A stretch of DNA of 32,000 nt from NCBI GenBank assembly GCA_022563455.1, contig JADFNI010000003.1:12666-44665 (forward strand), read 5' to 3'. Source of the stretch: Nanobdellota archaeon. Its GTDB lineage: Archaea; Nanobdellota; Nanobdellia; Pacearchaeales; GW2011-AR1. Below the pieces are notes generated by a model. It was not told the origin of the DNA. It made no database searches and saw nothing but the letters and a program-made list of their open reading frames with translations. The position numbers were made by a program, and so were the translations under genes. This document shows, in pieces, positions 12,043 through 30,723 of this stretch (position 1 is its first letter; each line of letters opens with the position of its first letter).

Positions 12043-14778
12043 TTAATCAAAGATATCTTCTTTTTTTGGTTCAGTTTTTTGTTCTTCTTCAGGATTATGG
12101 TTGTCTGTATCTATATTTTCTACAACTTCTACGTCGCTTGTTGGTTCGTGGTTTTCAACTGGTTTATCTTCTACGATTTCTTGAGCTGTTGTATTTTCTT
12201 CTATGACTTGGGCAGCTTCTTCATTTTCTTCAGGCACGTTTTCTTCTTCGGTTGATTCTTCTTCTTCTTCTTCTTCGGTTGATTCCTCCTCCTCTAACAA
12301 ATCTTCCACTACAGGGCCATTTTTTTCTATTTCTTCTGCTCGAACTAGCTCATCGCTTTGTCTTTCCTTTAATTCAGTATCTATTGAATTTTCATCATCT
12401 ATTTCATCTATTTTTCCTTGCCCTTCTATTGATTGCGCATCTTCTGAATGTTTTGCCTGTTCATTTTCTTCTTGTGGTTCTTCTACTTCTTCTTCAATCT
12501 TATTTTCTTCTACTTCGTCTACAGATTCGCCGTTTTCTAATTTTTGAACTAAGACTGAGATTTCTTTTGCGACATCTGCATTTACTGAAATTGAGTCAAT
12601 TCCTTGTTTTACTAAGAACTTTACCATTTCTTTGTTGGATCCTGCTTGACCGCAAATTGAAGTTGTGACTCCTTGTTTTTTACATTCTCTAATTACTCTG
12701 GAGATTTGTTTTAGGACTGCCCAGTTTGTTTCGTCATAGATAAATTGAACGTCTTCGTTTCCTCTGTCGATTGCTAAGGTATATTGTGTAAGGTCGTTTG
12801 TTCCAAATGAGATGAAATCGATTCCGACTTCACAAATGTCTTTTATCATTATCACTGCTGCTGGCGTTTCAATCATTACTCCAAATTCAACGTTATCCAT
12901 TTCTAGTTCTTTGAAAACTTCTTTTGCGGCTTTTACTTCTTCAACTGAAATTATTTGAGGAAACATTACTCCTAATTTATGGCCTTTGTTTGCTAAATTT
13001 TTAATTGCTCTTAGTTCTGCTTTAAGGATTCCTAAGTGTTTTAGTGAGAATCTTATTCCATGATTCCCAAGCATTGGGTTTTTTTCTATTTCTTTTGGTG
13101 CACCTGCAAGATTTGAATATTCATCGGATCTAATATCTGAACTTCTTATCCAGATTTTTTTTCCAATAAATGTTTCTGCGATTTTTCCAAGACCCTCTTC
13201 TAACATATTTTGATATTCATCTAGGGTGTTGTTTTCTTCATGAAATAATGGGTGCTTTTCTGAACTTGCGATCAAACCTTCGAGTCTTACTAAACCTACA
13301 CCGTCTGCTTTTGTTTTGGCGGCACGGCTGCTGAATTTTGGAAGGTCTACTAAAACTTTTATTTTTATTTTTGTGTTAACGATTGGGAGGATCTCTACGG
13401 ATTTGTTTTCGGCAATGCCTGCAAAAACTATTCCATTAAATCCGTCAACTGTGACTTTATCTCCGTCTTTCATAACTTCGAGAGCGTTTCCAGTACCTAC
13501 AACTGCTGGGATTCCCATTTCCCGAGATACAATTGCTGCATGTGCGGTTATTCCTCCTTCTGAGGTTACTATTCCTGCCGCCCTTTCCATTGTGACTACC
13601 ATATCTGGGTTTGTCATTGTTGTGACTAGGATGTCTCCTTTCTTTATTTTTCCAAGATCTTCTGTAGACTTTATTATTTTTACCGTTCCTGAAGCGACAC
13701 CTGGAGAAGCTGCCAAGCCTTCAGTTAATATTTGACCATCAAGGTCTTCTGAATCTGAAATTTCTTTAGTTTTTTTAAGGGTTGTTATTGGTCTTGTTTG
13801 AAGGATGAATATTTCATCGTTTTCTATTGCGAATTCAATGTCTTGAGCTTTATTATAGTGCTTTTCTAGTTTTAGTGCATATTCTCCTAGCTGTTTTAGT
13901 TCATAAGTTTTCAAGACTCTTTGATTTGATTTTTCAGGAGTTAGTTGAATTGTTTTTGTAAGGCCACCTGCAGTACGAATAATTGCTAACTTTTTATCGG
14001 CAATTTTTTCTTCTTTAATCTCTAGATCTCTAGATAACACATGCCCGTCCGGTTTTATTTTTCCGGAAACTATTCCTTCACCAAGGCCAAAGACAGATTC
14101 GATTAGTATTTCATCGGTATTTTTTACTGGATGTTTTGAGAAGATGACTCCTGCCTTATCTGCGTTTATCATTTTTTGAACAATTGCAGCTATTCCTACA
14201 AAAGCTTCGAATCCTTTTTTCTTTCGGTAGTAAATGGATCTTGCGGTGAAAATTGAGGCGAAGACTTTTTTTATGGCTTCTATTAGTTCTCTGTTTCCTT
14301 TAATGTTTAAGAAAGATTCTTGTTGGCCTGCAAAACTTGAATCGTCTAAGTCTTCTGCTGTGGCAGAACTTCTGACTGATACGAAAATTGGTTCTCTTGA
14401 AGATTTTAATATGGCTAGAGCTCCAGGGGATCCTTCAAGGCTTTTTAAATCTATATTGAAATGATCATAGGCCTCGGTGATTTTTGAACTTAGGTCTTCT
14501 GGCATTTTTGCAGAATTTATTAATTCTCTTATTTCTTTTGATTTTTCTGTTAAATTGTCCGTGTCATCTACGTCAATTCTTTTTAGAAGATCTTTTATTT
14601 GGTCTTTTATTTTAGTTTCTTTTAAGAATTTAGAGAATGCATCAGTTGTTACGACGAAAGCTTGTGGAACTGGGAAATGCGAATTGTACATTTCTCCGAG
14701 GTTTGCTCCTTTTCCTCCTGCGAGATTTAAGTCGGATTTAGAAAGGTCGGAGAGCCATGCAATGTATTTATCACCCAT
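12043..14778 (-). CDS. ppsA: Phosphoenolpyruvate synthase (pyruvate, water dikinase) with 164-aa acidic C-terminal extension
   Basis: 911 aa. N-terminal LAGGKGANLGEM ATP-grasp signature and phosphohistidine swivel motif GGITAHAAIVSREMGIPAVVG, plus a PEP-utilising TIM-barrel region. An E/D-rich tail follows it. Confidence 0.9.
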   Translation of the reverse strand: MGDKYIAWLSDLSKSDLNLAGGKGANLGEMYNSHFPVPQAFVVTTDAFSKFLKETKIKDQIKDLLKRIDVDDTDNLTEKSKEIRELINSAKMPEDLSSKITEAYDHFNIDLKSLEGSPGALAILKSSREPIFVSVRSSATAEDLDDSSFAGQQESFLNIKGNRELIEAIKKVFASIFTARSIYYRKKKGFEAFVGIAAIVQKMINADKAGVIFSKHPVKNTDEILIESVFGLGEGIVSGKIKPDGHVLSRDLEIKEEKIADKKLAIIRTAGGLTKTIQLTPEKSNQRVLKTYELKQLGEYALKLEKHYNKAQDIEFAIENDEIFILQTRPITTLKKTKEISDSEDLDGQILTEGLAASPGVASGTVKIIKSTEDLGKIKKGDILVTTMTNPDMVVTMERAAGIVTSEGGITAHAAIVSREMGIPAVVGTGNALEVMKDGDKVTVDGFNGIVFAGIAENKSVEILPIVNTKIKIKVLVDLPKFSSRAAKTKADGVGLVRLEGLIASSEKHPLFHEENNTLDEYQNMLEEGLGKIAETFIGKKIWIRSSDIRSDEYSNLAGAPKEIEKNPMLGNHGIRFSLKHLGILKAELRAIKNLANKGHKLGVMFPQIISVEEVKAAKEVFKELEMDNVEFGVMIETPAAVIMIKDICEVGIDFISFGTNDLTQYTLAIDRGNEDVQFIYDETNWAVLKQISRVIRECKKQGVTTSICGQAGSNKEMVKFLVKQGIDSISVNADVAKEISVLVQKLENGESVDEVEENKIEEEVEEPQEENEQAKHSEDAQSIEGQGKIDEIDDENSIDTELKERQSDELVRAEEIEKNGPVVEDLLEEEESTEEEEEEESTEEENVPEENEEAAQVIEENTTAQEIVEDKPVENHEPTSDVEVVENIDTDNHNPEEEQKTEPKKEDIFD

Positions 14779-14800
14779 AAGGGGATTAGCCTCTAGAGGT

Positions 14801-14808
14801 ATTTAAGT
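14801..14808 (-). promoter_or_regulatory. Archaeal TATA-box candidate for ppsA (ACTTAAAT on minus strand)
   Basis: Lies 23-30 nt upstream of the ppsA ATG at 14778, with no SD site. Confidence 0.35.
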
Positions 14809-15023
14809 CTTGCTCCTGATTTTGAGGGGCTTTGCCCCCTTTGTACAATCTATCTTGTTGAATAGGGTATATTAGAGTATATAGATTTTGATAAATTTTT
14901 TTTATAGGGTCTAGAGAATATGGCTTGTTTAGTATATATGTTATGATATAGTATATTAAAGTCTATAGATTTGAGCAAAAAAAAAGAGGGTTTTAAATTT
15001 TTTTGGTAAATAAATGTAAGTAA

Positions 15024-15446
15024 CCCCCACCAGCAGGAGTCGGACCTGATCTGGTGGAGGCTTTTTACTAAAGATTTCTCTGATTCAGACGATTCTGACA
15101 TTTCCAAGATTTTGCTCCTTGGTTGTCGACAGCATCGTCTTTGCGTATAACGTGCTGGAAACTGAATGAGCCCCACCTACCATGATTACCTTGTCAATAA
15201 TCATGTTGCGAAGTGTAGGTGAGACTCGATGACCGGAACACCACTCTCATGCTTGGGGGGTCTCTTGCATGAGGCTTCAAAGGTGTTCGGATCATCTCAG
15301 CCAATCATCTTGTTGGATAAATGAAGCCCATCTGCTCATGATAGCCACACAACTAGTCATCTTGAAGATCGCAGGTGAGCTCTTTGATGCCTACACTCTT
15401 GTTTGAAGGTCAGCAACTTCTACAAGAGGCTTCGCAGGGCATCAAA
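15024..15446 (-). other. About 420 nt ORF-free region made of six consecutive stem-loops (candidate structured RNA or origin-like element)
   Basis: Stem-loops at 15024-15060, 15130-15157, 15174-15221 (nested 7-bp and 8-bp stems), 15228-15296, 15325-15381 and 15383-15446 (nested 9-bp, 7-bp and 4-bp stems). One C-A mismatch on the plus strand (in the 15024-15060 stem) becomes G-U on the minus strand; the 15325-15381 stem is equivocal on strand. Confidence 0.35.
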
Positions 15447-15468
15447 TTATTATCTTTATTAGTTCCTG

Positions 15469-15609
15469 CTAGTCGTCGAGAGGATCCTCGAAAAGCTCTG
15501 GGAACTTTTTCCGAATGCGTTCTTTAACTATCAATGCAAAGAGGCTTACGTAGAAGATGCATGTAGTTACTGCTGATCTGAAGAGGCTTTTGACTACTTT
15601 TTGGACCAT
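15469..15609 (-). CDS. Small single-pass membrane protein, 46 aa (not in ORF track)
   Basis: AAGGAAA SD site 5 nt before the ATG. Sequence MVQKVVKSLFRSAVTTCIFYVSLFALIVKERIRKKFPELFEDPLDD: one TM segment followed by a basic/acidic tail. Confidence 0.35.
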   Translation of the reverse strand: MVQKVVKSLFRSAVTTCIFYVSLFALIVKERIRKKFPELFEDPLDD

Positions 15610-15645
15610 TGTATTTTCCTTTGTGTTTGTTGGAAGCGTTATATT

Positions 15646-15780
15646 TTACTTTTTACGTATTCGCATTCGCCCAGATCTTCTTTTATGTCTTGCTTTCTTG
15701 ACCTTTTCCTTTTTCTTTCCTTTAGGTTTTCTGATTAGCTCCCTTAGATCTGTACTTGTTTTGATTGAGTTTCTTTGCAT
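15646..15780 (-). CDS. Very basic small protein, 44 aa (not in ORF track)
   Basis: GAGGT SD site 6 nt before the ATG. Sequence MQRNSIKTSTDLRELIRKPKGKKKEKVKKARHKRRSGRMRIRKK. Confidence 0.4.
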   Translation of the reverse strand: MQRNSIKTSTDLRELIRKPKGKKKEKVKKARHKRRSGRMRIRKK

Positions 15781-15814
15781 GGTTCTACCTCTGGTTTACA
15801 GAGCTTATAACCTA

Positions 15815-16318
15815 TCAAGATTCATCCCTTTTGAGCCTGATTGCCTTTACCCCTTGTGCAAAAGACATTAGGACGAACAGCAAGGTAAAGAGAACTCCGA
15901 CTGTTCTTGCAGGACTTCCACTTCCTACGCGAAAGGCGCTTGCGAAGTTACCGTCGAAGAAGTCCATGACGAAATTTGGAATCCAGAAGTAGAGGACTGT
16001 TGAGTGTTGCACGATTGAAGACAAAACTACTTTTGGTGAAGTCCGAAGAATTTCTTCTCCGAGGGTCTGATCTATCCAGCTTGTGATGCTGAAGAGGAAG
16101 ACCAGCGAGAAGGTTCCAAGAACCATACAAGTGAGCCATTTGAGTGGGCCGCCTTTCGGATTCTGTTCGAAGTAGTCCTTGAGAAATCCTACGGTGATGA
16201 CTCCAGAGGCTATGGCAGTGCAAGTGTTTGCCCACGTGCTCGCTCCCGTGAACAGTGCGATTGAGATTGCATTGAGGATCAAGAAAGTTCTATAGAAATT
16301 GTTGAGATTGTTAAACAT
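15815..16318 (-). CDS. Integral membrane protein, 167 aa
   Basis: ORF with about 4 hydrophobic segments and a GGGGGG SD-like run 4 nt before the ATG. Overlapping alternate-frame ORFs are disregarded. Confidence 0.6.
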   Translation of the reverse strand: MFNNLNNFYRTFLILNAISIALFTGASTWANTCTAIASGVITVGFLKDYFEQNPKGGPLKWLTCMVLGTFSLVFLFSITSWIDQTLGEEILRTSPKVVLSSIVQHSTVLYFWIPNFVMDFFDGNFASAFRVGSGSPARTVGVLFTLLFVLMSFAQGVKAIRLKRDES

Positions 16319-16369
16319 TGTACCCCCCAGATTTGCTGTTGTGTAACGGTTTTTGGTTAATAGTTTTTC

Positions 16370-16528
16370 TTAGATTCTTCTTTTCTTTCTCGCAACAGCC
16401 TTTGCAATTTTTGCTTTGTCTCTTTGCTTTTTGTTTGCAGCAAAGCCATTTTTGATTCTTGAACCATTGCTTGGGCTGCCTCTTTGAATTTTTCGCGTTT
16501 CTTTTTCTTCGTCTTCGTCCTTCTTCAC
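16370..16528 (-). CDS. Basic small protein, 52 aa, GTG start (not in ORF track)
   Basis: AGGAGA SD site 7 nt before the GTG. Sequence MKKDEDEEKETRKIQRGSPSNGSRIKNGFAANKKQRDKAKIAKAVARKKRRI. Confidence 0.35.
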   Translation of the reverse strand: MKKDEDEEKETRKIQRGSPSNGSRIKNGFAANKKQRDKAKIAKAVARKKRRI

Positions 16529-16630
16529 CTAGAACTCTCCTTTCTGATTATCTATTTAAAAAGAAATTTACGCACACTATTATCTAACCTGTTCTTGATT
16601 TCTTTTTTTGCCCTTTGCCCTTTTCTTCTT

Positions 16631-16858
16631 TTAAACGTCCTTGCTTTGCACGTTTTCTTCTCTTTTTGTTTCCTCTTCTTTTTTCGTGTGATCATTGTTT
16701 GACCCCTTCAGTTCTCCGAAGAGTTCTTTTTTGCTTTGTTGATCTTCACGCTCCATTCTGCTTTGCTTTACTTTTTTGAAGGACTTTCGTCGCCTTCGTC
16801 GCAGTTCCATGATTTTCAGCCCCTCGGATGGATTCTTCTCCTGTTTTTCTTTCTTCAT
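16631..16858 (-). CDS. Highly charged K/E/R-rich small protein, 75 aa
   Basis: AAGGAGG SD site 5 nt before the ATG. The SD overlaps the TGA stop of the upstream 51-aa ORF. Confidence 0.5.
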   Translation of the reverse strand: MKKEKQEKNPSEGLKIMELRRRRRKSFKKVKQSRMEREDQQSKKELFGELKGSNNDHTKKEEETKREENVQSKDV

Positions 16859-16869
16859 GGAGTCCTCCT

Positions 16870-17025
16870 TCAGTTCTCATTCGGATTACTTACTTGGAGT
16901 TCTTCTGTGGAAGATCTTCTTCTTTTGAAGATCTTTCTTTCCTCCTTCTTCTGTGCTTTTCTTATTCTTTCCTCCTTCTTCTTGATTTCACGCTTTTCTT
17001 TCTTGGATATGCGACCTTTTGACAC
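16870..17025 (-). CDS. Highly basic small protein, 51 aa, GTG start (not in ORF track)
   Basis: GGGAGAG SD site 5 nt before the GTG. Sequence MSKGRISKKEKREIKKKEERIRKAQKKEERKIFKRRRSSTEELQVSNPNEN. Confidence 0.4.
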   Translation of the reverse strand: MSKGRISKKEKREIKKKEERIRKAQKKEERKIFKRRRSSTEELQVSNPNEN

Positions 17026-17057
17026 TATATCTCTCCCGTTTTTCTTGGTGTTGGTTG

Positions 17058-17183
17058 TTAGGGATGATTCTTCCAGAAGAAGTTATCTTTTTTCTCTTTA
17101 TGAAATCTCATCAAAAATAGGATTGATAACCAGATCAGACTCATTGCTAGAACTTTGAACGCGCTTTCTACGAGATTTCTCAT
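17058..17183 (-). CDS. Small hydrophobic protein, 41 aa (not in ORF track)
   Basis: GGGGAAG run just upstream of the ATG. Sequence MRNLVESAFKVLAMSLIWLSILFLMRFHKEKKDNFFWKNHP, with one TM segment. Confidence 0.35.
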   Translation of the reverse strand: MRNLVESAFKVLAMSLIWLSILFLMRFHKEKKDNFFWKNHP

Positions 17184-17281
17184 TTTCTTCCCCACATATA
17201 ACTGTGATGTTGTTTTGCAGCGAAGAGAAAGGGATCCTTTCGGGTTTGGACCTTAGGATTCCTCTTTTCTGATTTAGCTAG

Positions 17282-17524
17282 CTAGCGCCGCTTTCGTCTT
17301 TGTCTTTCTTCTTCCTTAGTACATCCTTCGAGCAGTTCTTCGAAGAGTTCTCCGAAGTTATCTGATGGATCAGAATCAGAATCGTCATCATCTGCGTGAG
17401 AACTTCTTGCGCCAAGGTCTTCTTTTTGTACGACTGGTTCTACTCTCTTGTATCCGTCTTTTTCGCTTCGAAGCATTTTGATTGCTCGTGATTCTGATTC
17501 TGATTCTGTTCGTGATTTGCTCAT
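17282..17524 (-). CDS. Charged small protein, 80 aa (acidic centre, basic C-terminus)
   Basis: GGGGGAA SD-like run 3-4 nt before the ATG. A perfect TATAAT (plus-strand 17557-17562) lies 32 nt upstream of the ATG. First gene of the small-ORF operon. Confidence 0.5.
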   Translation of the reverse strand: MSKSRTESESESRAIKMLRSEKDGYKRVEPVVQKEDLGARSSHADDDDSDSDPSDNFGELFEELLEGCTKEEERQRRKRR

Positions 17525-17596
17525 GTTTCCCCCATTTGTTTTTGATGGATTGAACTATTATAGTCTGTCAGGATTTACTGAAATGATTTTTTAGAA

Positions 17597-17884
17597 CTAT
17601 ATCTTCTTGTTCGGGTTTTTCCAAATTACTTTTCTTTTGTTTGTGATCTTTCTGATGCTTTGGTGACTACAGATAAAGAGGAGCTGGTGCCCATTGTTGA
17701 AAACAATGAATGCACCATCATCTTTTATCATGTTATGGATGGAAGATTTTCTTACCCTGATTTTAAAATTTTTTACTCTGTTTCTTGGAATTGGAGACTT
17801 TTTGTAGGGGTCCTTTCTCCAGTTCTCTGAGAGAAAAAACGTGTGGGTTCCTACCTTGGTTGGGAAGTAATGCTCTTCGTTCAT
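17597..17884 (-). CDS. Hypothetical protein, 95 aa
   Basis: GGGAG SD site 6 nt before the ATG. No motif recognised. Confidence 0.5.
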   Translation of the reverse strand: MNEEHYFPTKVGTHTFFLSENWRKDPYKKSPIPRNRVKNFKIRVRKSSIHNMIKDDGAFIVFNNGHQLLFICSHQSIRKITNKRKVIWKNPNKKI

Positions 17885-17934
17885 GATTTTCTCCCATTCT
17901 GTTTTTGATTGTTTATTGTGATTTCGCGTTAAAG

Positions 17935-18040
17935 TTATCTAACGCATAAAACGTAAGGGCTCTACCTTTCCCATAGCAGCATCTAAGTCTTTTCCAGGAC
18001 TTTCGAGTTGTGCATTTGGGAGATTGGTAGAGCCCTATCT
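17935..18040 (-). repeat. Intergenic box-plus-hairpin module, copy A
   Basis: Box TTATCTAACGC at 17935-17945, then an 11-bp stem AGGGCTCTACC/GGTAGAGCCCT (about 17956-17966 and 18026-18036) enclosing about 59 nt. Confidence 0.5.
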
Positions 18041-18150
18041 TACATTTTGGGTATAGACCCGGTTCCGTCTATATCCGGTTCAGCTTGTCTACATAAGTGC
18101 TTTTCTCCTTTTTGGTTGGAGTTGTTGATTAATGAACTGTTAGGTTAGAG

Positions 18151-18234
18151 TTATCTAACGCTTAAAATTGAGGACTCTGCCTGCTGTTATACGCCATTCT
18201 AACTGAGCTTTTCAGTTAGAAACAGACAGAGTCC
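18151..18234 (-). repeat. Intergenic box-plus-hairpin module, copy B
   Basis: Box TTATCTAACGC at 18151-18161, an outer stem at 18172-18183/18223-18234, and a perfect 10-bp inner hairpin at 18197-18221. Confidence 0.5.
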
Positions 18235-18245
18235 CCGAACACTCA

Positions 18246-19241
18246 CTAGAAGAACTTGAACTTGAACCCGACTGTTCCTGCGAGGATGCTAGTGTCTGGT
18301 TTCTTGCTTGCAGGAATTGTGACACCCCCTATGAATGTGATGCGTCTCGTTATTATAAATTCGGCTCCGAGTTTTAGATTGACGATGAACGATGCTTTTT
18401 TCGAGCTTTTGGAGTCATCGTTGCCGTTGATCTTGATTGCGGCTAGTCCAATTCCTACTCCGAAGTATGGCTGGATTGGAAACCTTTCCCAAACTGAGTT
18501 CAAGTTGGCAGTAATTTGTGTGACGTCAATTTTTACTAATTGGCGTCTCAAATTTCTAACATTTACATCAACATCAGAACTGTAGTTGATGACGCAACCG
18601 CCGAGGTCGATTCTCCAACTGTCGAAGTAGATTCCCAAATCCGATGACGATCTCTTTTTCTTTGAGAGGCAGAACTCAAAGCCGTCGTTTCCTGTGACCG
18701 TTACATTTTGCCCAAGCCTTTTTTTGAAATAACCTTTGAGGTCGTTGCTTTGAGGGTTGATTACTACCCCGCTGTAGAAGTGGAAATCTTGCAGCCATTC
18801 AGGTTTCCATTCTTTCTTTTGTTCTTTGGCCTCTGCAGTTTCTCTTTCTTCTTTCTCCTGATCTTTGGTCTTCGCAGTTGCAATCGTGGTGTAAATAGGG
18901 CTGTTGCGATGACGCTCTAGTTTTTCGGCATCGCTCTCTTCACTTTTATGATGATCAATTATTGGGTTTGGGGGATTTGGTTGGTGATTTTGTTTTTTTC
19001 GAGTGTTGCTTGCCTCCTTGAGTTTACTAGTCGTGATAGAAGGGGACTTCTTTTCCACCCGGGAAGTGTGTGGCTTTTGCTCTCGGGGAGAGTTATCTAG
19101 TTCGGTCAGTTCGGTCAGTTCGGTCAAAGCTTCTTGCTCGTTCTTTGCCCCTTGCTCAGATCTGTAGTTTATCCCAGCAAGTATTGCTAGAGCTGTTGCG
19201 ATGAATGTTGCGATGACGATACCCCATGCGTTTTTCGACAT
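18246..19241 (-). CDS. Membrane-anchored protein with C-terminal OMP-like beta-barrel domain
   Basis: The preferred start MSKNAWG (19241) has AAGGAA 8 nt upstream; the track start at 19268 is a TTG. N-terminal TM anchor, (TEL)x3 repeat and charged linker. The C-terminal ~190 aa has alternating amphipathic strands and ends ...GTVGFKFKFF, like a bacterial OMP beta-signal. Confidence 0.6.
   Translation of the reverse strand: MSKNAWGIVIATFIATALAILAGINYRSEQGAKNEQEALTELTELTELDNSPREQKPHTSRVEKKSPSITTSKLKEASNTRKKQNHQPNPPNPIIDHHKSEESDAEKLERHRNSPIYTTIATAKTKDQEKEERETAEAKEQKKEWKPEWLQDFHFYSGVVINPQSNDLKGYFKKRLGQNVTVTGNDGFEFCLSKKKRSSSDLGIYFDSWRIDLGGCVINYSSDVDVNVRNLRRQLVKIDVTQITANLNSVWERFPIQPYFGVGIGLAAIKINGNDDSKSSKKASFIVNLKLGAEFIITRRITFIGGVTIPASKKPDTSILAGTVGFKFKFF
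18903..19030 (-). repeat. Direct repeat copy 1 (inside the OMP-like gene)
   Basis: About 130 nt similar to 19207-19339, offset 310 nt, including a 41-nt identical core CTTTTATGATGATCAATTATTGGGTTTGGGGGATTTGGTTG. Confidence 0.7.
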
Positions 19242-19339
19242 CTTTCTATTTCCTTTTATGATGATCAATTATTGGGTTTGGGGGATTTGGTTGCTGATTT
19301 TGTTCTTTTCGAGTGTTGCTTGCTTCCAGAGTTTACTGG
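19207..19339 (-). repeat. Direct repeat copy 2 (spans the OMP-like gene start and the 3' end of the upstream truncated paralog)
   Basis: See copy 1. Differences are scattered substitutions plus one 1-nt indel. Confidence 0.7.
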
Positions 19340-19554
19340 TTGTGGTCGTAGTCGACTTCTATTCCGTTCACGAAGTATGTGGATTTTGTGTCTAGGGACT
19401 CTGGTGGCTCTGTATTCAGTTTGGTCAAAGCTTCGAGTTGCTTGTCTGCCCATTGCTCAGTTTTGTAGTTTATTGCAGCAAGTATTGCGAGCAGGCTTGC
19501 GAGCACGAAGAGAGATCTTACATATTTGTCGAATCTGGTTGTCGTTGTTGTCAT
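19333..19554 (-). pseudogene. Truncated paralog of the OMP-like protein N-terminus (73 aa; TM anchor only)
   Basis: AGGAGA SD site. LAILAAINYKTEQWADKQLEALTKL parallels LAILAGINYRSEQGAKNEQEALTEL of the downstream gene. It ends at a TAA where the ~130-nt repeat begins, and it has no barrel domain. Confidence 0.45.
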
Positions 19555-19603
19555 GTTGTCTCCTGTTGATTGTTGGTTGTTATTGATATAGCTTCGCGCA
19601 AGA

Positions 19604-19694
19604 TTATATCTGACGCGTAAAATTGGAGCCCTATCCCACCACCAACTGAAGGGAACTTCCCAGGAGTTGATGGTTTGCGGTAGGGTAGGGCTCT
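19604..19694 (-). repeat. Intergenic box-plus-hairpin module, copy C
   Basis: Variant box TTATATCTGACGC at 19604-19616 overlapping a minus-strand TATAAT (plus-strand 19603-19608). Long imperfect stem at 19625-19640/19677-19694 with an inner stem. Confidence 0.45.
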
Positions 19695-19802
19695 GTCGAA
19701 CATCGTTTTCTTCGCTTTTGGCTTAGAATTCGCTTTGTCCGAAGATGCTGTTGCAAGAGAGGATGGTTTTTTCTGGAATGTCTCGTATTGTTCGAAAAAG
19801 AT

Positions 19803-20078
19803 CTAGATTGCAGTCATGGAAGTTTCACCCAACTTTCTTTTGCTAGTGCCTGGCTTTCCTTTTGGCCAAAGAGACGTGCTGATGTAGTGGCCGTGATCAA
19901 TGAAGTATACTTGCTGTAAGGTTCGAATTACTGTCAAATTGACTTTCGTTTCGGTGGTCTTGGACTTGAGCTAGAACCTGACGAAATTCGGAATCACAAT
20001 TGTTGCAAAGATTCCGATGATTACAATAATTATCATGAGTTCGATCAAGGTGAGGCCATTTTTTTTTCGAACAGTCAT
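19803..20078 (-). pseudogene. Bacterial-type type IV pilin / T2SS pseudopilin interrupted by an in-frame TAG
   Basis: The 35 aa before the first TAG (19971-19973) read MTVRKKNGLTLIELMIIIVIIGIFATIVIPNFVRF. The same frame continues LKSKTTETKVNLTVIRTLQQVYFIDHGHY... to a second TAG at 19803-19805. This is a prepilin cleavage/methylation motif G|LTLIEL with Glu at +5. Confidence 0.6.
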
Positions 20079-20370
20079 TATTTTTTCCTGTCCCTTTATT
20101 GTGTTGGTGGTTAAGTGTTAGGCGTCGTTCTTTTTGGCGAGAAAGCTGGCCTTGAGAAATTCCTGGAAAGATTCCACTTTTGAAGAGTAGTATATATGGA
20201 ACTTCTCAAGGCTTTAGACATTCATTTTTTATTCTCCTATAATAATTAATGATTGTCTGATTTTCGAAGTGCTGTTGTGAACTTTGCAACGCTAAAAGTG
20301 GGAAGCTCTTCAGAGGGATTGGCCTTGGAGGAGCTTCTATGGTTGTTGCAATCTGGTCATGGTCAATTAG

Positions 20371-20410
20371 TTTGGACCAGTTTGAACCAGTTTGAACCAG
20401 TTTGAACCTA
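20371..20410. repeat. Four tandem 10-bp units (TTTGAACCAG), iteron-like
   Basis: Units are TTTGGACCAG, TTTGAACCAG, TTTGAACCAG and TTTGAACCTA. They lie in the noncoding gap between the lipoprotein and pilin genes. Confidence 0.6.
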
Positions 20411-20474
20411 TCTGTATTGTCTGGATTAGGTCAATGTTGTATCTGAAGCGATAGGTCCTGCCTTCTTCTTCATT

Positions 20475-20837
20475 TCATTTCTCGTTTTGCAAAATCTCCT
20501 TGTAACTGGGCATATTTCTTACAGGTATTTCTAACAGATTTATGAGTTCTTCTTGAGAAACAATGAACAGCAGTATTTCTTCTGCAGTTGTCGCTGGGTG
20601 AAGGCCTAGAAGCTTGATTTGGTCTTGACGCCATATCTCGATATCGTAATCATTGACGTCTGCCCAGGTTGCCGTGCTTTTGAGTCCTCGCGCTTCGATT
20701 TCTCTTTCGAGATAACTTTTGCCTCCTTCGTATGCGAAGTCGTGCCAGTCGTCGATGTAGCTGTTTTGACTTATGCATCCAGTTGTTGCGATTGCGACTA
20801 CTGCGATCATGATTGCTGTTGTGATATTTAGGGTCAT
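20475..20837 (-). CDS. Putative lipoprotein, 120 aa
   Basis: AAGGAGAA SD site 5 nt before the ATG. Signal peptide ends in a lipobox-like IATTGC. Confidence 0.55.
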   Translation of the reverse strand: MTLNITTAIMIAVVAIATTGCISQNSYIDDWHDFAYEGGKSYLEREIEARGLKSTATWADVNDYDIEIWRQDQIKLLGLHPATTAEEILLFIVSQEELINLLEIPVRNMPSYKEILQNEK

Positions 20838-20841
20838 GATG

Positions 20842-20901
20842 GTTCTCCTTGTTTTCGTTGTTTGATTTTTTGACCTATACAGAAATCCTTAGACTTCTGA
20901 A
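20842..20901 (-). repeat. Promoter/leader repeat, copy 1
   Basis: About 55/60 identical to 22399-22458. Read on the minus strand it is hairpin, TATAGGTC, CA-rich leader, AAGGAGAAC, then ATG. Confidence 0.6.
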
Positions 20902-21141
20902 AAAATTCTAAATTCTTCATCTCTCTATAATGAGGGGGTATGTTTTGTTTGTCTTTTCTTTTTGTAGCTTAACCGGGGGAGGCTAAGTTCGACGGGATTA
21001 CTATTTTGTTCTCTCTGCATCATTGAGGGCTGGATCTGACGGCTTTCTTAACTTCGATATCGGGTTACACAAGAGTTCTTTTATGCCCTTGTTATCGAAT
21101 AAGCCGCCTATATGATTGCATTAGTACGTCTAGAGAATTTA

Positions 21142-21699
21142 TTAGAACGTCACCTTAAATCTTGCTTTGCCGCCCTTACCTTTCTTGAGAATGCCAACAC
21201 TCCACTTCATACGTACAGGAGGCTTTCCAATTCTAGCAATGCTTCCTATATCGCCTTTCACCCCTTTACCGGCAATCCTGATCGACGGCTTAAAGAACCC
21301 TCGCTTAGCTTTAGATCTAAGTCGCTGGACCGGGGTGTCTTGAAGAAGGGTTTTCTTTTTCTTATCTACCATTGCTGCTCCTTCAATTGCTAGTTCCCAT
21401 GCCAGCTGTTTGTTCCGGGTGCTAATTGCCATTATTAGCGCCTTGTCCAAGTCGTAAAGAATGTTTCCTTTTCCAAGGGAAGCACCGAAGGTTGGGATTT
21501 GTATTGAAGTACTGGCGGAAGTATATCTTCCTAGATACGGTGGTGCAGCACTGTGGACCCTGTTTCTTTTTTCTTGGTAATTGAAGTTGAAGAACTTTTC
21601 AGGGCCTTGACTTGTGTTTTGGGCTGTTGCATCTGTTGCAACGCTCATTGTCAAAATGACAAAGGTTGAAAGAACAAACTTTACTATGGAACTTTTCAT
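21142..21699 (-). CDS. Secreted basic protein, 185 aa
   Basis: AAAGGAAA SD site. N-terminal signal peptide (...MSVATDATA|QN). K/G-rich C-terminus ending in F. Confidence 0.55.
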   Translation of the reverse strand: MKSSIVKFVLSTFVILTMSVATDATAQNTSQGPEKFFNFNYQEKRNRVHSAAPPYLGRYTSASTSIQIPTFGASLGKGNILYDLDKALIMAISTRNKQLAWELAIEGAAMVDKKKKTLLQDTPVQRLRSKAKRGFFKPSIRIAGKGVKGDIGSIARIGKPPVRMKWSVGILKKGKGGKARFKVTF

Positions 21700-21911
21700 T
21701 TCTTTGTTTCCTTTTTACTTTAAGTGATCAACTAATTTCCAATTCAATGTGGTGCTAGGAAACTTGGTGTGTTTTGTTTGGTTCTCCTTTCTTTATGTTT
21801 CGTTGTAGTTATTTTTAGTGCACTATTGTGCTTGAAAGAGTACCTTTCCCTATGGTACTAGAAGGACTTATTTGTTGTTGACTTTAGAGTCAGTCGGTTA
21901 GTTAGTTAGTC

Positions 21912-22349
21912 TTACTCAAATTCTTCGATCAACCCCCAGACCAACCCAAAGACCAACCCAAAGACAGGTCCTAAGACAAACCCAAAGACCAACCCCAAGA
22001 CCAACTCAAGGATCAACCCCAAGACAAACCCAAAGACCACCACCCAGACAAACTCAAAGACCACCCCAAAGACCAACCCAACAATCAACCCATAGGTCAA
22101 CCAATAGAACAATCCCCTTTCACCGTAGCTCTTGAGGTTATTCCATCCATATTTTTGCCATGCAATGAAGCTTATGGCGGTTGAGGCTACTGAGATGTAG
22201 CAAATGATTGGGCATATGAAAAATGAGGGGTGGAAGGATACTTGAGAGTCTTCTTGTCCAACTCCTAGTTCTTTGAAAATTAGGTGGGAGTGATAGATCA
22301 TGGCTATGCTTGCTACTCCGAGAATGAGTGATACGAGTAGTCTTACCAT
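21912..22349 (-). CDS. Membrane protein with extended GxxxG glycine-zipper repeat
   Basis: 145 aa. The C-terminal half, GLIVGLVFG...VFGFVLGLILELVLGLVFGFVLGPVFGLVFGLVWG, has Gly every 4th residue and is encoded by tandem CCAAAGACCAACCC-like DNA repeats at 21931-22090. The N-terminus is uncertain (see the leader repeat at 22399). Confidence 0.55.
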   Translation of the reverse strand: MVRLLVSLILGVASIAMIYHSHLIFKELGVGQEDSQVSFHPSFFICPIICYISVASTAISFIAWQKYGWNNLKSYGERGLFYWLTYGLIVGLVFGVVFEFVWVVVFGFVLGLILELVLGLVFGFVLGPVFGLVFGLVWGLIEEFE

Positions 22350-22398
22350 AGAACTCTTGCTGACGCTGTTTGTTGAGATTTCTTGAGTGGAAATGACA

Positions 22399-22458
22399 GT
22401 TCTCCTTGGTTTTGTTGTTTGATTTTTTGATCTATACAGAAATCCGTAGACTCCTGAA
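22399..22458 (-). repeat. Promoter/leader repeat, copy 2
   Basis: Same unit as 20842-20901. At the position of the ATG in copy 1 it has ATT (22392-22394), which is in frame with the downstream 145-aa ORF. Confidence 0.6.
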
Positions 22459-22509
22459 TAAAGGTTGCCCTCCTCTAAAGAAGCTGGAAGGACTTTGGTG
22501 GATGCTTTC

Positions 22510-22908
22510 CTAAACTTCGTAACCTTCCATCCTCATCTCTTCCTCTGTCTTGATGGAGATTCCGTCGTTAGTGATGCCCCAGAAGTGATTTTCGAGTCTT
22601 TCGTTTTCGAGTCTTTCGATTACTACGAATTGATCGGTTAAATTCGTCGAGAATGGGAAGACTACTGAGAAGAGAATCTCTTCTCTTGTTTGGCTTGTAG
22701 TGCCATAGACGTTGATTTGTAGGAACTTAGTTCCGTTGAGAAGTTTTGGTGATTGTGGTTTTTTGCCTTTGTTTCGGTGATCGCCGTTCGTGTGAAGTTC
22801 TTTGACCTTGAACTCTGTGAGGGCTCCTCTTCCGAGTTTTGCGCATGAGAGCCCTGCGATTTGTATTGCGAGTGCAACGTTTTCGTTTGCTCGAAGTTCT
22901 CTTCTCAC
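22510..22908 (-). CDS. Hypothetical cytoplasmic protein, 132 aa (paralog family member, weakest match)
   Basis: GTG start with AGGAGA 4 nt upstream. Shows loose similarity to the 116-aa and 144-aa ORFs (LSCAKLG / FLQINVYG...ILFSVVF). Confidence 0.5.
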   Translation of the reverse strand: MRRELRANENVALAIQIAGLSCAKLGRGALTEFKVKELHTNGDHRNKGKKPQSPKLLNGTKFLQINVYGTTSQTREEILFSVVFPFSTNLTDQFVVIERLENERLENHFWGITNDGISIKTEEEMRMEGYEV

Positions 22909-23059
22909 ATGATCTCCTGTTTACTCTATGTTGTTTGGCTAGTTGATTGTTGTTGACCATCACAGATGTTGTAGGCATCTGGAGGAAGTGGGGAAGCCTT
23001 ATTAATTTGTTAACAAGACTTCCTTTTTTATTGCTCTTGCTTCTTTGGGTTCCTAGTGA

Positions 23060-23410
23060 CTAGTGGGATTTTCGCTCGAGATTCGGAACCTGATTTAGAT
23101 CATTTGCATCGAAGAGACGGTTTTCTCTTCCTCGAGAGTTTCGAAAATCGATGCTTGCCGTGGTGAGGTGGTAGTAATGACCTTCTTTTTTGTTCGTGAC
23201 TTCGAGGTAGGTCAGAACAAGTTTGGCACCTGTTTCATATTCAACTCTTACCTGAAAGGTCGAACGACTTTGAGCGCTGTGAACGATTTCCATACAGGAG
23301 AAATTAGCTCTCTGGTGCCTGTTTGTTCCAGGGGTTTTTACCATGATGAGGTTTGCGGCAATTGCGGCGTCTCTTTTAAGGACTAATGGAATCGTGTTTT
23401 GGGTGGACAT
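23060..23410 (-). CDS. Hypothetical cytoplasmic protein, 116 aa (paralog family member)
   Basis: AAAGGA SD site. Shares CME, VRVEYETGAKLVLTYLEV and ASIDFRNSRGRENRLFDANDL blocks with 25053-25487. Confidence 0.55.
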   Translation of the reverse strand: MSTQNTIPLVLKRDAAIAANLIMVKTPGTNRHQRANFSCMEIVHSAQSRSTFQVRVEYETGAKLVLTYLEVTNKKEGHYYHLTTASIDFRNSRGRENRLFDANDLNQVPNLERKSH

Positions 23411-23537
23411 GATGGATCCTTTTGTTTGCCTTATAATTGGGCTTTGAATTATTTAGTGTGATTCTTGATTTGTAGTTGATTTGTAATTGTGTGATAAAAC
23501 TTTTTGGATTAAGTAAGTTTAACGCTCTTACTTTTTA

Positions 23538-23897
23538 TCAAATATCTTCTAAGGTAGAGAGATCTATGACCTCTGTCACATTTCCCTTTTTCCTAGTTAT
23601 ATTACCATAACAGCCTTTACTAAAAATTCCGTGAAGTCTGCAATTGGCAATACCTCTTACATAGGTTACATCTCCTGAAAGTTTATCAAAATCACCTAGG
23701 AGACCTTCACCTAATCCTTCTTCGCATACTTTATCAATCCTTATAAAACAATTATTAGGGTGGATAGGTATGCTGCGAATCATAGATTTTCCGAGTCCTT
23801 TTGCAGTTCTTGCTAGTCTCTCGGCTATTTTTCGCTTTTCTTCAAGGGATATTTCAAGTTCAGATTCAGCTTTATTAACATTAACAGCAAGTAGCAT
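23538..23897 (-). CDS. Hypothetical protein, 119 aa
   Basis: AAGGAGAA SD site 6 nt before the ATG, the same SD style as the rest of the block, although this stretch is locally AT-rich. Confidence 0.5.
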   Translation of the reverse strand: MLLAVNVNKAESELEISLEEKRKIAERLARTAKGLGKSMIRSIPIHPNNCFIRIDKVCEEGLGEGLLGDFDKLSGDVTYVRGIANCRLHGIFSKGCYGNITRKKGNVTEVIDLSTLEDI

Positions 23898-23961
23898 TTA
23901 TACTTCTCCTTTTTGGTGATTTAATTACTTTCTAGATGTTGTTAATTTATTAGATTTCCTT

Positions 23962-24348
23962 TTATGATTCTTTTTGCTTTATTAAGGAAATGGTTAGGGA
24001 TATAAAATAACTAATCAATCCTAAAACAATTGAAAGGTTGATGTTGTAAAGAAAATCCGGAATTGGATTACTTTCTAACTCACGGATAATCTCAGCTATT
24101 ATTCCAATTCCAATTGACGAAATTAAAATTGAAAAAAGTACAGAATAAAAAATGGTAATATTCTGATGGATCAATTTTGCCAAGAAGGCCGAACTTGCAA
24201 TCCCTGAGAGTGTGAGAGAAACTCCGATTCCTTCCATTGGATTTTCCATCATGAGATTGAGGTAAAGAAAAATGATGAAAATTGCGGCAAAGAAAATGAA
24301 TCCAGTAGCTGAGATGTTGTTTTTTGGATAGATGATTTCTTCGGGCAT
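23962..24348 (-). CDS. Small integral membrane protein, 128 aa
   Basis: AGGAGA SD site 6 nt before the ATG. About 4 hydrophobic segments. Confidence 0.55.
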   Translation of the reverse strand: MPEEIIYPKNNISATGFIFFAAIFIIFLYLNLMMENPMEGIGVSLTLSGIASSAFLAKLIHQNITIFYSVLFSILISSIGIGIIAEIIRELESNPIPDFLYNINLSIVLGLISYFISLTISLIKQKES

Positions 24349-24695
24349 TTTGGATCTCCTGAGTCCTATTATTTATTTATTTATTGGGCTTGGTTGATGG
24401 TTGTACATACTACAGACGTTCTTGAACGTCTGGAAGAAATGCACCTTCCCCTGATAGTAGCGAGAAGGGCTTCGTGATTCGACAAACACTAGAAGCATTA
24501 GTCAAAGTGACGCTTTAGTGTGTCTCCGGCCGATGGTTCAAATAAAAGTTTTATTGATGGTCGGGTGCATCGTGGGTGGATCATTCATGAGTCGATTTCT
24601 CCTTTTGGTTGTTGGTTGATGTTGTTGGTTCATACAGGATCAATAGATTCCTGCGAAAAAGGTACCCCCTCTTTGGTAGCCGGAGGATTTTGATC

Positions 24696-24911
24696 TTACT
24701 TATTCAGTCTGCGCTCGACTAGCTGGTAAACCATCGTTGCTGTTGGGATTTTATTCTCCCTGGCTAGGCGTTTGAGTACGCGCAGTTCCTTGTCAGAGAT
24801 CATTATTGCAACTCGATTTCTTCGTGAGTTTGGGTTTTGGCCTTGTCCTGTTCCAATTGGACGACCTGCTCCAGCACGACGACCACCCCATCCGACTTTC
24901 TTATTTCTCAT
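24696..24911 (-). CDS. Ribbon-helix-helix (CopG/Arc-like) DNA-binding protein with Gly/Arg-rich N-terminal arm
   Basis: The preferred start MRNKKVGWGGRRAGAGRP (24911) has AGGAG 7 nt upstream. The C-terminal RVAIMISDKELRVLKRLARENKIPTATMVYQLVERRL fits a strand-helix-helix pattern. Confidence 0.55.
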   Translation of the reverse strand: MRNKKVGWGGRRAGAGRPIGTGQGQNPNSRRNRVAIMISDKELRVLKRLARENKIPTATMVYQLVERRLNK

Positions 24912-25052
24912 TGTACTACTCCTATTGTTTCTTGCTTGGTTACTTTCCCACTTCAAAATAGAAATTAAGAAGTGAAAAATGGTGATGGATCTTTGGATAA
25001 TAGATTATACCTGAGCCCTATTGTTTATTTGGCTATTTAGGGGTGAGGCTTT

Positions 25053-25487
25053 CTAAAGGGGATAGATGCCAACAAGTTTTGCTCTCATAAGCGCGCTTAT
25101 AAGCTGCTTATCCTTAATTATATTAGGACAGTTGTGGATGTTATTCTCTCTCGCCTCATTAAAAATCGGCACTAATTCATCTTCACCTAGAAGCTCATCT
25201 TCACTTCCCCATCTACGAAAATTGATACGGGCATCCAGAAGTTCTTCGCAAAGCATGCCTACATTTGGAAAAGTACAAAATGTCAAAAGAACGAGAGGGC
25301 CTTGATCAAAATCAACTTCTATCCGGATTATGCCTACTTCAGGAAATGCATTCTTTATATTTATCTTAGGATCTTGGGGTAGAAGATATCCATGGGATCC
25401 TTCCATACATATTAGAATTATTCTAGCTGTAGTAGTGAACATCAGCTGTCGATCAGGAGTAATTTCTTCTATATCGAAATTAGGCAT
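25053..25487 (-). CDS. Hypothetical cytoplasmic protein, 144 aa (paralog family member)
   Basis: GGGGAA SD site. Shares CME, IRIEVDFDQGPLVLLTFCTF and ARINFRRWGSEDELLGEDEL blocks with 23060-23410. Confidence 0.55.
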   Translation of the reverse strand: MPNFDIEEITPDRQLMFTTTARIILICMEGSHGYLLPQDPKINIKNAFPEVGIIRIEVDFDQGPLVLLTFCTFPNVGMLCEELLDARINFRRWGSEDELLGEDELVPIFNEARENNIHNCPNIIKDKQLISALMRAKLVGIYPL

Positions 25488-25815
25488 TTTGGTTCCCCTA
25501 TTATACGTATTCCATTAAGGAAATGTAGATTGATGTGTATGAAATACCTATTAGGGGGTATTTCGGTTGATTTTTAAAGATCTCGCATGGAGGTCTCTAT
25601 TAGAAATTTGTCTCTTTTTACCTATTTCTTTCTTGAAAAGAGGTTTTTCTTTGTCTTTTCGTTAGGTAATTTTTTTAGATCCTTTTTTGTTGTTTGTGTG
25701 TCGGGGCTAATCTTGAGGCTGTTGTGCTTCAAGGTTGCGTTGTCGTTTGTGTTTTGGATCTATTGTTTGTTTTGTGTTTTATTTTGTTTTAAATGTGATT
25801 TGATTAGTTAGATAC

Positions 25816-28358: not shown

Positions 28359-29117
28359 ATGGGTTTAAGATATATTCTTAATGGGCTTGGTGTAGCAGTT
28401 ATAATTGGGACATCTTTTCAAGCTAATGCTAGAGATATAGCCTCTGAAGTTAATAATACTTCAACTACCTCCTTAATAGATATATTAGAAGACCGGGGTA
28501 ACTGTGGGGGTGGGATAAATTTTAAAACAAGTACAAAATCAGAAAGAATTGAAAAATTGTTTAGAGAGGGTGGATCAACTGGATTATCTTTTGGATTTAA
28601 TTGTTATAATATCGATACTTCTGTAAATACAACATATCCATTGAAAAATAATTTTAATTTAGATAAAGCGCATATAGAAATTGGATATTCTAAATCATTT
28701 GAAGATTTATCTGCAAGGTTAGGTATTACTTCTGTAATAAAAAGGTTTGGAGAAGATGATCATTTAATCGAGGGTAATGTGTTATTTTCAGGATTATCTT
28801 ATTTTGATTTAAAATTTGGATTAAAACAGTCATTAGTTAAGAAATCAACAGAATTTGGTATGGAAGTAAGAAGGAAATTTAAAATTGGGAAATATTTTGG
28901 ATTTAAGTGGTCTTATAGACCTTCATTTGAAATAGGATGTAGCTTTGAAGAAGGTGAAAATGGTTGTCCTATGAATTACACACCTAAACTTAGATTAAAA
29001 GGAAAAAGAGGAGATCTTTTTGTAAAATTAACTGGATTGCATAAATTTTATGATGGAAAGAAAGAAGATACTGATAAATTATCAATTAGTTTAGGTTATG
29101 TATTTAAATTAGATTAA
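28359..29117 (+). CDS. Secreted beta-strand-rich protein, possible small beta-barrel
   Basis: 252 aa. Signal peptide ...GTSFQANA|RD. Repeated amphipathic strand-like segments (AHIEIGYSKSF, LFSGLSYFDLKFGL, FGMEVRRKFKIG, FGFKWSYRPSFEIG, LSISLGYVFKLD). Confidence 0.5.
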   Translation: MGLRYILNGLGVAVIIGTSFQANARDIASEVNNTSTTSLIDILEDRGNCGGGINFKTSTKSERIEKLFREGGSTGLSFGFNCYNIDTSVNTTYPLKNNFNLDKAHIEIGYSKSFEDLSARLGITSVIKRFGEDDHLIEGNVLFSGLSYFDLKFGLKQSLVKKSTEFGMEVRRKFKIGKYFGFKWSYRPSFEIGCSFEEGENGCPMNYTPKLRLKGKRGDLFVKLTGLHKFYDGKKEDTDKLSISLGYVFKLD

Positions 29118-30351: not shown

Positions 30352-30723
30352 TTATGTTACTTGGTCTAGACCTGTTCCGTCTTCGATTATATCTGTTGCC
30401 ATTTCTTCAAGATCCTCCTTTTTATCTCCGTAAAGTGTAAATTTTCTAGAATACCAAAAACTTTTGCGAAATTCTATCTCTCCCGGTTCTCCTATGGGTT
30501 CGTAATGATTAACTACTTGAGTTACTCTTATTGCAATTCCTGGTTCTACAAAGTATGTTCTTGCATGCTTAATTTTTGCATGAATTAAAGGATCTCCTTC
30601 TCTACTTATTTCTCTGGAGTAGTGCGCAGTTTCTTTTACTTCACGATCTACTAATTCACGAAATTTCGCTTCAATAAATCTTGGGGGAGATGCTTTTTCT
30701 ATATATTTCAACTTTATTATCAT
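30352..30723 (-). CDS. Hypothetical protein, 123 aa
   Basis: Clean ORF in host composition, downstream of the ribosomal protein genes. No motif recognised. Confidence 0.5.
   Translation of the reverse strand: MIIKLKYIEKASPPRFIEAKFRELVDREVKETAHYSREISREGDPLIHAKIKHARTYFVEPGIAIRVTQVVNHYEPIGEPGEIEFRKSFWYSRKFTLYGDKKEDLEEMATDIIEDGTGLDQVT

Follow-up and report, generated by a model that had tools for sequence, protein, structure and literature searches.

A type IVa pilin gene of bacterial type, probably a pseudogene, within a hypervariable spacer of a DPANN archaeon

Analysis of a 32-kb stretch of DNA (here called the window, meaning the whole stretch that was analysed) indicated that a short minus-strand reading frame ending on TAG is very probably the first part of a pseudogene, the remnant of a horizontally acquired bacterial-type PilA gene that lies within a hypervariable spacer in the small genome of a DPANN archaeon. 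What was observed directly comprises the features of the sequence, the alignment, the change of frame, the usage of TAG and the synteny on which this reading is based. A bacterial-type type IVa major-pilin (PilA-like) gene would have been acquired horizontally into a strain-specific island of 11 kb and would there have suffered a CAG-to-TAG transition at an invariant Gln midway along helix α1, together with one or more deletions, amounting to ~195 to 200 nt in total, that would have removed the globular β-sheet core and shifted the frame. The original C-terminus (…C-NSIF-GQSEF-stop) would in this way have been left in another frame ~100 nt downstream of the PGTSK motif.

Translation of the minus strand from 20078 to 19971 gives MTVRKKNGLTLIELMIIIVIIGIFATIVIPNFVRF, with TAG following directly. 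The cleavage site and helix consist of KKNG followed by LTLIELMIIIVIIGIF, and the constituents of an N-terminal methylation domain are all present, namely a short basic leader with Gly as its last residue, a hydrophobic +1 residue, Glu at +5 and a hydrophobic helix of ~20 residues. The 35-aa ORF scored 32.5 bits with PF07963 (N_methyl; curated cut-off, 21.2 bits) and 23.4 bits with TIGR02532 (curated cut-off, 16.3 bits). As both curated cut-offs were exceeded, the resemblance to pilins is not a matter of chance. A database search with the read-through product retrieved 23 proteins, most of them 177 to 198 aa in length and three shorter, and several of these carry the source names PilA or prepilin. 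The closest intact relatives were 180- to 190-aa PilA proteins of Deltaproteobacteria/Myxococcota-like bacteria, and identity to the intact homologues of this length was 50 to 59% over the first ~80 residues. An exact look-up of the 35-aa ORF among 153 billion gene positions returned no recorded gene product.

Downstream of the first TAG (19973-19971), translation in the same frame gives LKSKTTETKVNLTVIRTLQQVYFIDHGHY... and runs on to a second TAG at 19805-19803, the whole of the stretch from one TAG to the other reading LKSKTTETKVNLTVIRTLQQVYFIDHGHYISTSLWPKGKPGTSKRKLGETSMTAI. In an alignment with 14 homologues, the column of the first TAG is occupied by an invariant Gln within the motif RFQLKSK, and the TAG is one C-to-T transition away from CAG. 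The preliminary description of this DNA had proposed a pilin gene broken by a TAG on a conserved Gln through a single transition; the profile scores of the 35-aa ORF and the invariance of the Gln support the first part of that proposal, and the codon table bears out the second. Replacement of the TAG by Gln raised the score of a partial match to NF041775 (Myxococcus-type PilA) from 36.4 to 64.8 bits. Since the score rose and the match was extended upon read-through, the frame is truly continuous across the TAG. The read-through match spans profile positions 10 to 69 of 214 only, and the equivalog cut-off of 400 bits was missed. A profile of the family, built from 20-odd homologues, matched the read-through frame at profile positions 6 to 92 with an E value of 5.6e-35, and the frame downstream of the TAG therefore has the significant pilin similarity on which the initial proposal had been made to depend.

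The extent of this same-frame homology was seen in tblastn searches with the 23 homologues, whose matches ended at 19839, with a minority ending within 19812-19872 and one reaching 19737. An invariant P-x3-PGTSK motif marks the end of the homology (~19839). The pilin character had been described as fading after HGHY, a limit that was set too early, as the homology goes on for ~15 residues to the PGTSK motif. An exhaustive HMMER search, for which the 55 residues following the TAG served as the query, was uninformative, retrieving four long repetitive proteins and zero pilins. An exact DNA-pattern scan over the TAG, with N at the variable base, was used to look for CAG variants and sister strains and gave 0 matches in genome and metagenome contigs.

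A second lesion was evident from the length and frame of the remnant. From ATG to stop it measures 356 nt, which is no multiple of three, and intact homologues are about 549 to 558 nt long. In a different frame, the minus strand encodes NFHDCNLDLFRTIRDIPEKTILSCNSIFGQSEF followed by TAA (19725-19723), corresponding to the disulfide-loop end of the family, ...C...VGPC-x4-GQS[VE]F-stop; the C-terminus of one homologue (P0012) reads …VGPCAANFGQSEF. The Cys, the Cys spacing, the GQSEF end and the stop codon of this piece all agree with the homologues. The last 11 to 17 residues of the homologues gave weak but recurrent tblastn matches in the different frame at 19776-19726, and the piece aligned to profile positions 168 to 182, the very end of the profile (15 residues, -0.8 bits). 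The pattern C-x4-GQS-x-F-stop occurs a single time in the six frames of the 32-kb window, compared with a chance expectation of 0.003 per window from second-order Markov simulations, and it lies on the same strand as the PGTSK motif, ~100 nt downstream. For so short a match, the putative assignment as the C-terminal remnant is based on the exact motif and the stop codon rather than on the alignment score.

A remnant of 356 nt, compared with about 550 nt, and a C-terminus in another frame mean that ~195 to 200 nt are missing and that the frame has been shifted. The missing part comprises the αβ-loop and the β-sheet core, which in the homologues contain the blocks FDTLGW...QVFFQY...YT..A.ADIDGD..NQ.WGY (the last block also given as NQVWGY), and profile positions ~93 to 150-167 had no counterpart in any frame. 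The D-region remnant at the C-terminal end (HDC-x18-C-NSIF-GQSEF-stop) is out of frame with the N-terminal part. A functional type IVa major pilin has an uninterrupted α1 and a globular αβ domain with a four-stranded β-sheet, and the remnant does not have this structure. Hence, of the earlier suggestion of a freshly inactivated pseudogene, the pseudogene stands, but inactivation by one transition only does not, as ~65 middle codons have also been lost with a change of frame. The second TAG, which had been recorded as an in-frame stop, is outside the ancestral frame, and because 19805-19803 is beyond the junction it is not the stop of the ancestral gene. The features of the remnant and its surroundings are listed in Table 1.

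Table 1. Coordinates, within the window, of the pilin remnant and associated features
Feature	Position	Strand	Description
Whole PilA-like type IVa pilin remnant	19723..20078	-	Both family ends present, in different frames and ~195-200 nt too close
35-aa ORF	19971..20078	-	Prepilin leader MTVRKKNG; Gly at the cleavage site, with Leu+1 and Glu+5; initial, hydrophobic half of helix α1
TAG nonsense codon	19971..19973	-	Codon 36; aligned to invariant Gln (RFQLKSK)
Same-frame pilin homology after TAG	19839..19970	-	Second half of helix α1 and loop to invariant PGTSK
Junction zone	19819..19838	-	Likely site of the change of ancestral frame, with ~65 codons gone; approximate limits, one or two events
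C-terminal remnant	19723..19824	-	Putative family C-terminus, in a different frame, ending on TAA
Second TAG	19803..19805	-	Past the junction; bases within AAT CTA GAT (N-L-D) of the ancestral C-terminal frame
Indel site	20097..20112	.	Just upstream of the pilin start; assembly L002 (positions 2305-2641) adds ~338 nt
OMP-like 331/340-aa protein	18246-19268	-	C-terminal PF13505 OMP_b-brl match (E = 3e-7); ends …GFKFKFF
Variable spacer (island)	14779..25815	.	11.0 kb, from PEP synthase (12043-14778) to HerA-like ATPase (25816-27756)

The host was identified from the genes that flank the spacer. L10e (PF00252), L35Ae (PF01247) and an archaeal-type GluRS are present, and the L10e protein shares 71 to 82% identity with its counterparts in MAGs labelled Woesearchaeota, Pacearchaeota or Nanoarchaeota. 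These genes place the host among Woesearchaeota/Pacearchaeota-like DPANN archaea, in agreement with the archaeal host supposed at the outset. The order L35Ae–L10e–methyltransferase–148-aa protein–HerA-like ATPase–spacer–PEP synthase–nucleotidyltransferase–AP_endonuc_2-like protein was found in relatives and in 80 metagenomic loci; in two relatives (L021 and L023) the methyltransferase abuts the PEP synthase and the ATPase pair is absent. The HerA-like ATPase, 52 to 76% identical across relatives, was considered as a mark of a mobile element and rejected as such, being a conserved core gene of the lineage. A provirus origin was examined by scanning viral contigs with the HerA-like ATPase, which yielded no relatives, and a viral scan with the pilin alignment gave generic N-terminal matches only.

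The remnant lies between the ATPase and PEP synthase genes, in a position that varied greatly in length and content. In nine relatives the corresponding spacer measured 0.8, 1.8, 1.9, 2.0, 3.0, 3.6, 4.3, 4.5 and 8.9 kb. Neither the spacer ORFs of the window nor the pilin gave a tblastn match in 80 related loci, and nothing in common was detected by tblastx between the spacers of different genomes. The spacer content of the relatives was unrelated between genomes and mostly orphan, with small membrane or secreted proteins in two spacers that were inspected. A difference in composition was also detected, with GC3 values of 0.42 to 0.56 for the ORFs between 15815 and 23410 compared with 0.13 to 0.36 for host genes; the N-terminal part of the pilin, with a GC3 of 0.525, resembles the island, and the GC content of the remnant is ~40%. 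Among relatives, spacers of at least 3 kb were clearly GC-richer than their flanks in three of five cases. Conserved flanks, unrelated content and deviant composition, the marks of a hypervariable spacer, are thus all present, and the ATPase–PEP synthase position is a hypervariable hotspot in this archaeal lineage. The marks of an integrative element are not, as there was no tRNA, no integrase domain and, among the repeat families detected, no terminal direct repeat, and an Rfam scan of the whole window returned nothing.

The content of the spacer in the window consists of orphan proteins, judged from their sequences to be mostly membrane or secreted proteins. A Pfam scan of its three minus-strand frames detected only N_methyl and a weak OMP_b-brl match, with no trace of a decayed pilus-assembly gene. 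No PilB/PilT, PilC, PilD or PilMNOPQ gene was found in the 32-kb window, whether among 26 ORFs scanned with Pfam, in the minus-strand frames of the island or in the remaining ORF translations. The OMP-like protein, which matches a β-barrel domain of bacterial outer membranes although it is encoded in an archaeal genome, had no homologue but itself among 5.8 billion sequences, and an exact look-up of its 331-aa form returned no recorded gene.

Several repeats were observed within the spacer. The segments 18920-19201 and 19230-19502 are a tandem partial duplication of the 5' part of the OMP-like gene, ~300 nt apart and 78 to 91% identical, and a 73-aa ORF at 19333-19554 repeats the N-terminus of the 331/340-aa protein. 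This 73-aa ORF is probably a second gene fragment beside the pilin remnant. A 70-nt sequence is present at 20836-20905 and 22393-22462, in copies that are 89% identical and lie directly upstream of island ORFs 20475-20837 and 21912-22349; the sequence includes a AAGGAGAA-like ribosome-binding stretch and looks like a shared promoter or leader. ORF 21912-22349, which encodes a small membrane protein, contains a 12-nt tandem repeat of ~13.6 copies (21930-22092) whose translation is a hydrophobic repeat of the (G/V)LVFG type. Four tandem copies of a 10-nt unit, AGTTTGAACC, occupy 20369-20408 in the intergenic region upstream of the pilin remnant.

Alternatives to a pseudogene were considered, and the three that follow are improbable even when combined. 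According to the first, the 35-aa ORF would be a functional stand-alone mini-protein, for example a membrane peptide or a minimal substrate of an archaeal prepilin peptidase. The ATG has been kept, with a purine-rich stretch upstream of it (AAAGGGACAGGAAAAAATA), and the G-1/E+5 motif is fully intact and scores above the Pfam threshold. However, the exact look-up in 153 billion gene positions returned no gene product corresponding to the ORF, and no pilin-like sequence was present in the 80 related loci, so that the conserved mini-protein in homologous loci that had been envisaged as a counter-explanation was not encountered. Furthermore, the homology runs straight through the stop, which is the signature of a nonsense mutation and not of a designed terminus. 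A functional mini-protein is accordingly regarded as very unlikely.

The second alternative is an artefact of assembly, in which bacterial reads would have been wrongly joined to an archaeal contig, or the stop and the deletion created by faulty assembly of a repeat region. Three further assemblies of the same or a near-identical population were located via other proteins of the window. One of these, L002 (ENA ERZ27267501), is identical to the window over 20078-19723, including the TAG, although the compared assemblies may share one sample; over the remainder of the 8.6-kb overlap that contains the remnant, L002 and the window differ at four positions. The ~338 extra nt that it carries just upstream of the pilin start hold a 101-aa orphan ORF and are bounded by the direct repeat AACCACCAAC; this indel represents either a polymorphism that arose by deletion between short repeats or a discrepancy between assemblies. 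In the other two assemblies, a contig (L004, from SRR12886461) ends at 20103 and a scaffold (L003) has a gap of 100 N over 20102-18998. These interruptions, the additional 338 nt at 20097-20112 and the tandem duplication of 300 nt just downstream would be expected of an artefact, and the stretch is difficult to assemble, yet the sequence of the pseudogene was reproduced, base for base, in two assemblies. Archaeal core genes stand on both sides of the island within one contig, so that a chimera would require two junctions, and the GC content of 40% and GC3 of 0.525 place the remnant with the island and apart from the bacterial homologue loci, whose GC content is 63 to 67%. An origin by mis-assembly is on this evidence most improbable.

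The third alternative, which the preliminary description had raised as TAG read as Gln, is that the codon is decoded as Gln or another amino acid, the gene being intact and giving rise to a full pilin. The usage of stop codons in the window bears on this possibility. TAG terminates 9 of the 30 listed ORFs, with TAA and TGA terminating 16 and 5, respectively. The TAG of L10e lies only a few residues from the point at which L10e stops in ten relatives, five of which also use TAG, and island ORFs 18246-19268, 22510-22908 and 23060-23410 terminate on TAG as well. With the standard code, GluRS, PEP synthase, the HerA-like ATPase, the methyltransferase, L10e and L35Ae are full-length and align along the length of their relatives. 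TAG is an ordinary working stop codon in this genome. Reassignment of TAG to Gln is known from some ciliates, green algae and some recoded phages. The sole likeness of the present case to those systems is the in-frame TAG at a conserved Gln position, and it differs in that TAG terminates both host and island genes and the gene is broken independently. The position of the TAG exactly on the invariant Gln, one transition from CAG, and a frame held for 44 further codons of clear homology are what recoding would predict, but it was rejected as hardly credible, because TAG ends these ORFs, with that of L10e at a homologous end point and those of the three island genes among them, and because the read-through product would still be truncated, without a β-sheet core, and frame-shifted, with the family C-terminus out of frame; moreover, no tRNA gene of any kind is present within the 32-kb window. 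Pyrrolysine at the TAG was dismissed on three counts, namely the Gln with which the codon aligns, the frequent use of TAG as a terminator and the additional break in the gene.

With the pseudogene as the preferred reading, the likely origin of the ancestral gene was examined. The intact homologues that were inspected are on bacterial contigs of 63 to 67% GC, beside genes for NifU, a penicillin-binding protein and a PilZ protein. Comparison of the island with two bacterial pilin loci detected no synteny beyond the pilin, and a search for a donor with the OMP-like neighbour as the query retrieved only the protein itself. In view of the GC content of the homologue loci and the absence of synteny, the donor is not among sequenced close relatives, or else strong amelioration of the gene has taken place. 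Even the best homologues reach no more than 50 to 59% identity over the N-terminal half, and they come from far GC-richer genomes. The gene probably passed from a bacterium to the archaeon.

The state of the remnant bears on the course of its decay. Where helix α1 departs from the family consensus, many of the replacements are Ala→Val/Thr and Val→Ile, which, like CAG→TAG, are changes from G/C to A/T and would be consistent with an AT bias in mutation pressure. Conservation is still good over the first 80 codons, which are interrupted by one stop and contain no frameshift, so that either inactivation was recent or this part was constrained; this fits a young pseudogene, without proving it. The interruption of α1 and the missing globular domain suggest a loss of function. 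Deletion between direct repeats, as at the 338-nt indel, is consistent with an ongoing deletional decay, although there an assembly artefact is possible.

A conserved N-terminus of 80 residues at ~40% GC suggests a long period of selection in a low-GC genome. It was considered that a bacterial-type pilin had been functional for a long time in the archaeal lineage and was recently lost, or that bacterial DNA has repeatedly accumulated in the spacer, and these broader proposals appear doubtful. Under the former, a once-functional bacterial-type (Glu+5) pilin would perhaps have been processed by an archaeal prepilin peptidase; under the latter, the ATPase–PEP synthase spacer may be a recurrent landing site for DNA from the bacterial host of an episymbiotic Woesearchaeote.

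Comparison with the Myxococcus-type PilA proteins (NF041775, PF07963 and TIGR02532) indicated both what has been retained and what has been lost. The remnant shares with them a class-III signal peptide with Gly-1 and Glu+5, a continuous hydrophobic/amphipathic α1 (…IPNFxRFQLKSK…), the PGTSK loop and a C-terminal Cys…Cys-x4-GQSxF. Unlike them, it has a nonsense codon at Gln36, has lost ~65 codons of the globular domain and has its C-terminus out of frame; furthermore, its residue at +1 is Leu, not Phe, and its score with NF041775 is 64.8 bits compared with 400 bits. In contrast to bacterial PilA systems, it resides in an archaeal genome, with no PilB, PilC, PilD or PilM-Q genes nearby in the 32-kb window.

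The occurrence of bacterial genes in this host lineage has precedents. In the main text of Castelle et al. (2021, Front Microbiol 12:660052, PMC8204110), Woesearchaeota/Pacearchaeota DPANN are described as having many bacterial-type protein families, some of these archaea are proposed to be episymbionts of bacteria, and laterally acquired bacterial pathways are described as maintained and functional; neither pilins nor pseudogenes came up when that main text was searched for these terms. The present case concerns the same host lineage, whereas the pilin remnant is a dead gene that stands alone in a variable, strain-specific spacer. It is one more case, here a decayed one, of the already known presence of bacterial-type genes in DPANN. 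Demonstration of an ordinary pseudogene removes one candidate for stop-codon recoding and, as a by-product, puts on record an isolated pilin gene of bacterial type that is decaying in a Woesearchaeota/Pacearchaeota-like genome. The significance is small, being that of a descriptive detail with no new mechanism, and the ATPase–PEP synthase position, which carries 0.8 to 11 kb of unrelated, often GC-richer orphan genes, could serve as a hotspot for studies of gene flux between DPANN archaea and bacteria.

Other observations were made on the genes flanking the spacer. A partial ORF at 31695-32000 on the plus strand has an archaeal class-III-signal-like N-terminus, MDKRGISAVVATVLMILLTIAAIG (also given as MDKRGISAVVATVLMILL…). 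It had been named an archaeal class-III pilin, for which the N-terminus is plausible, but its match to Pfam Pilin_N (E = 0.003) was below the threshold. Two ORFs between conserved core genes had no counterpart in relatives. One, at 28359-29117 on the plus strand, encodes 252 aa with a signal-peptide-like N-terminus and a β-strand-like end (…SLGYVFKLD) and has a GC3 of 0.13; the other, at 30352-30723 on the minus strand, encodes a 123-aa protein. The PEP synthase (minus strand) has a C-terminal tail of ~150 aa that is extremely acidic and E/D-rich and extends beyond the region matched in relatives (~750 residues aligned). Upstream of L35Ae, most relatives have a match to a nucleotidyltransferase paralogue.
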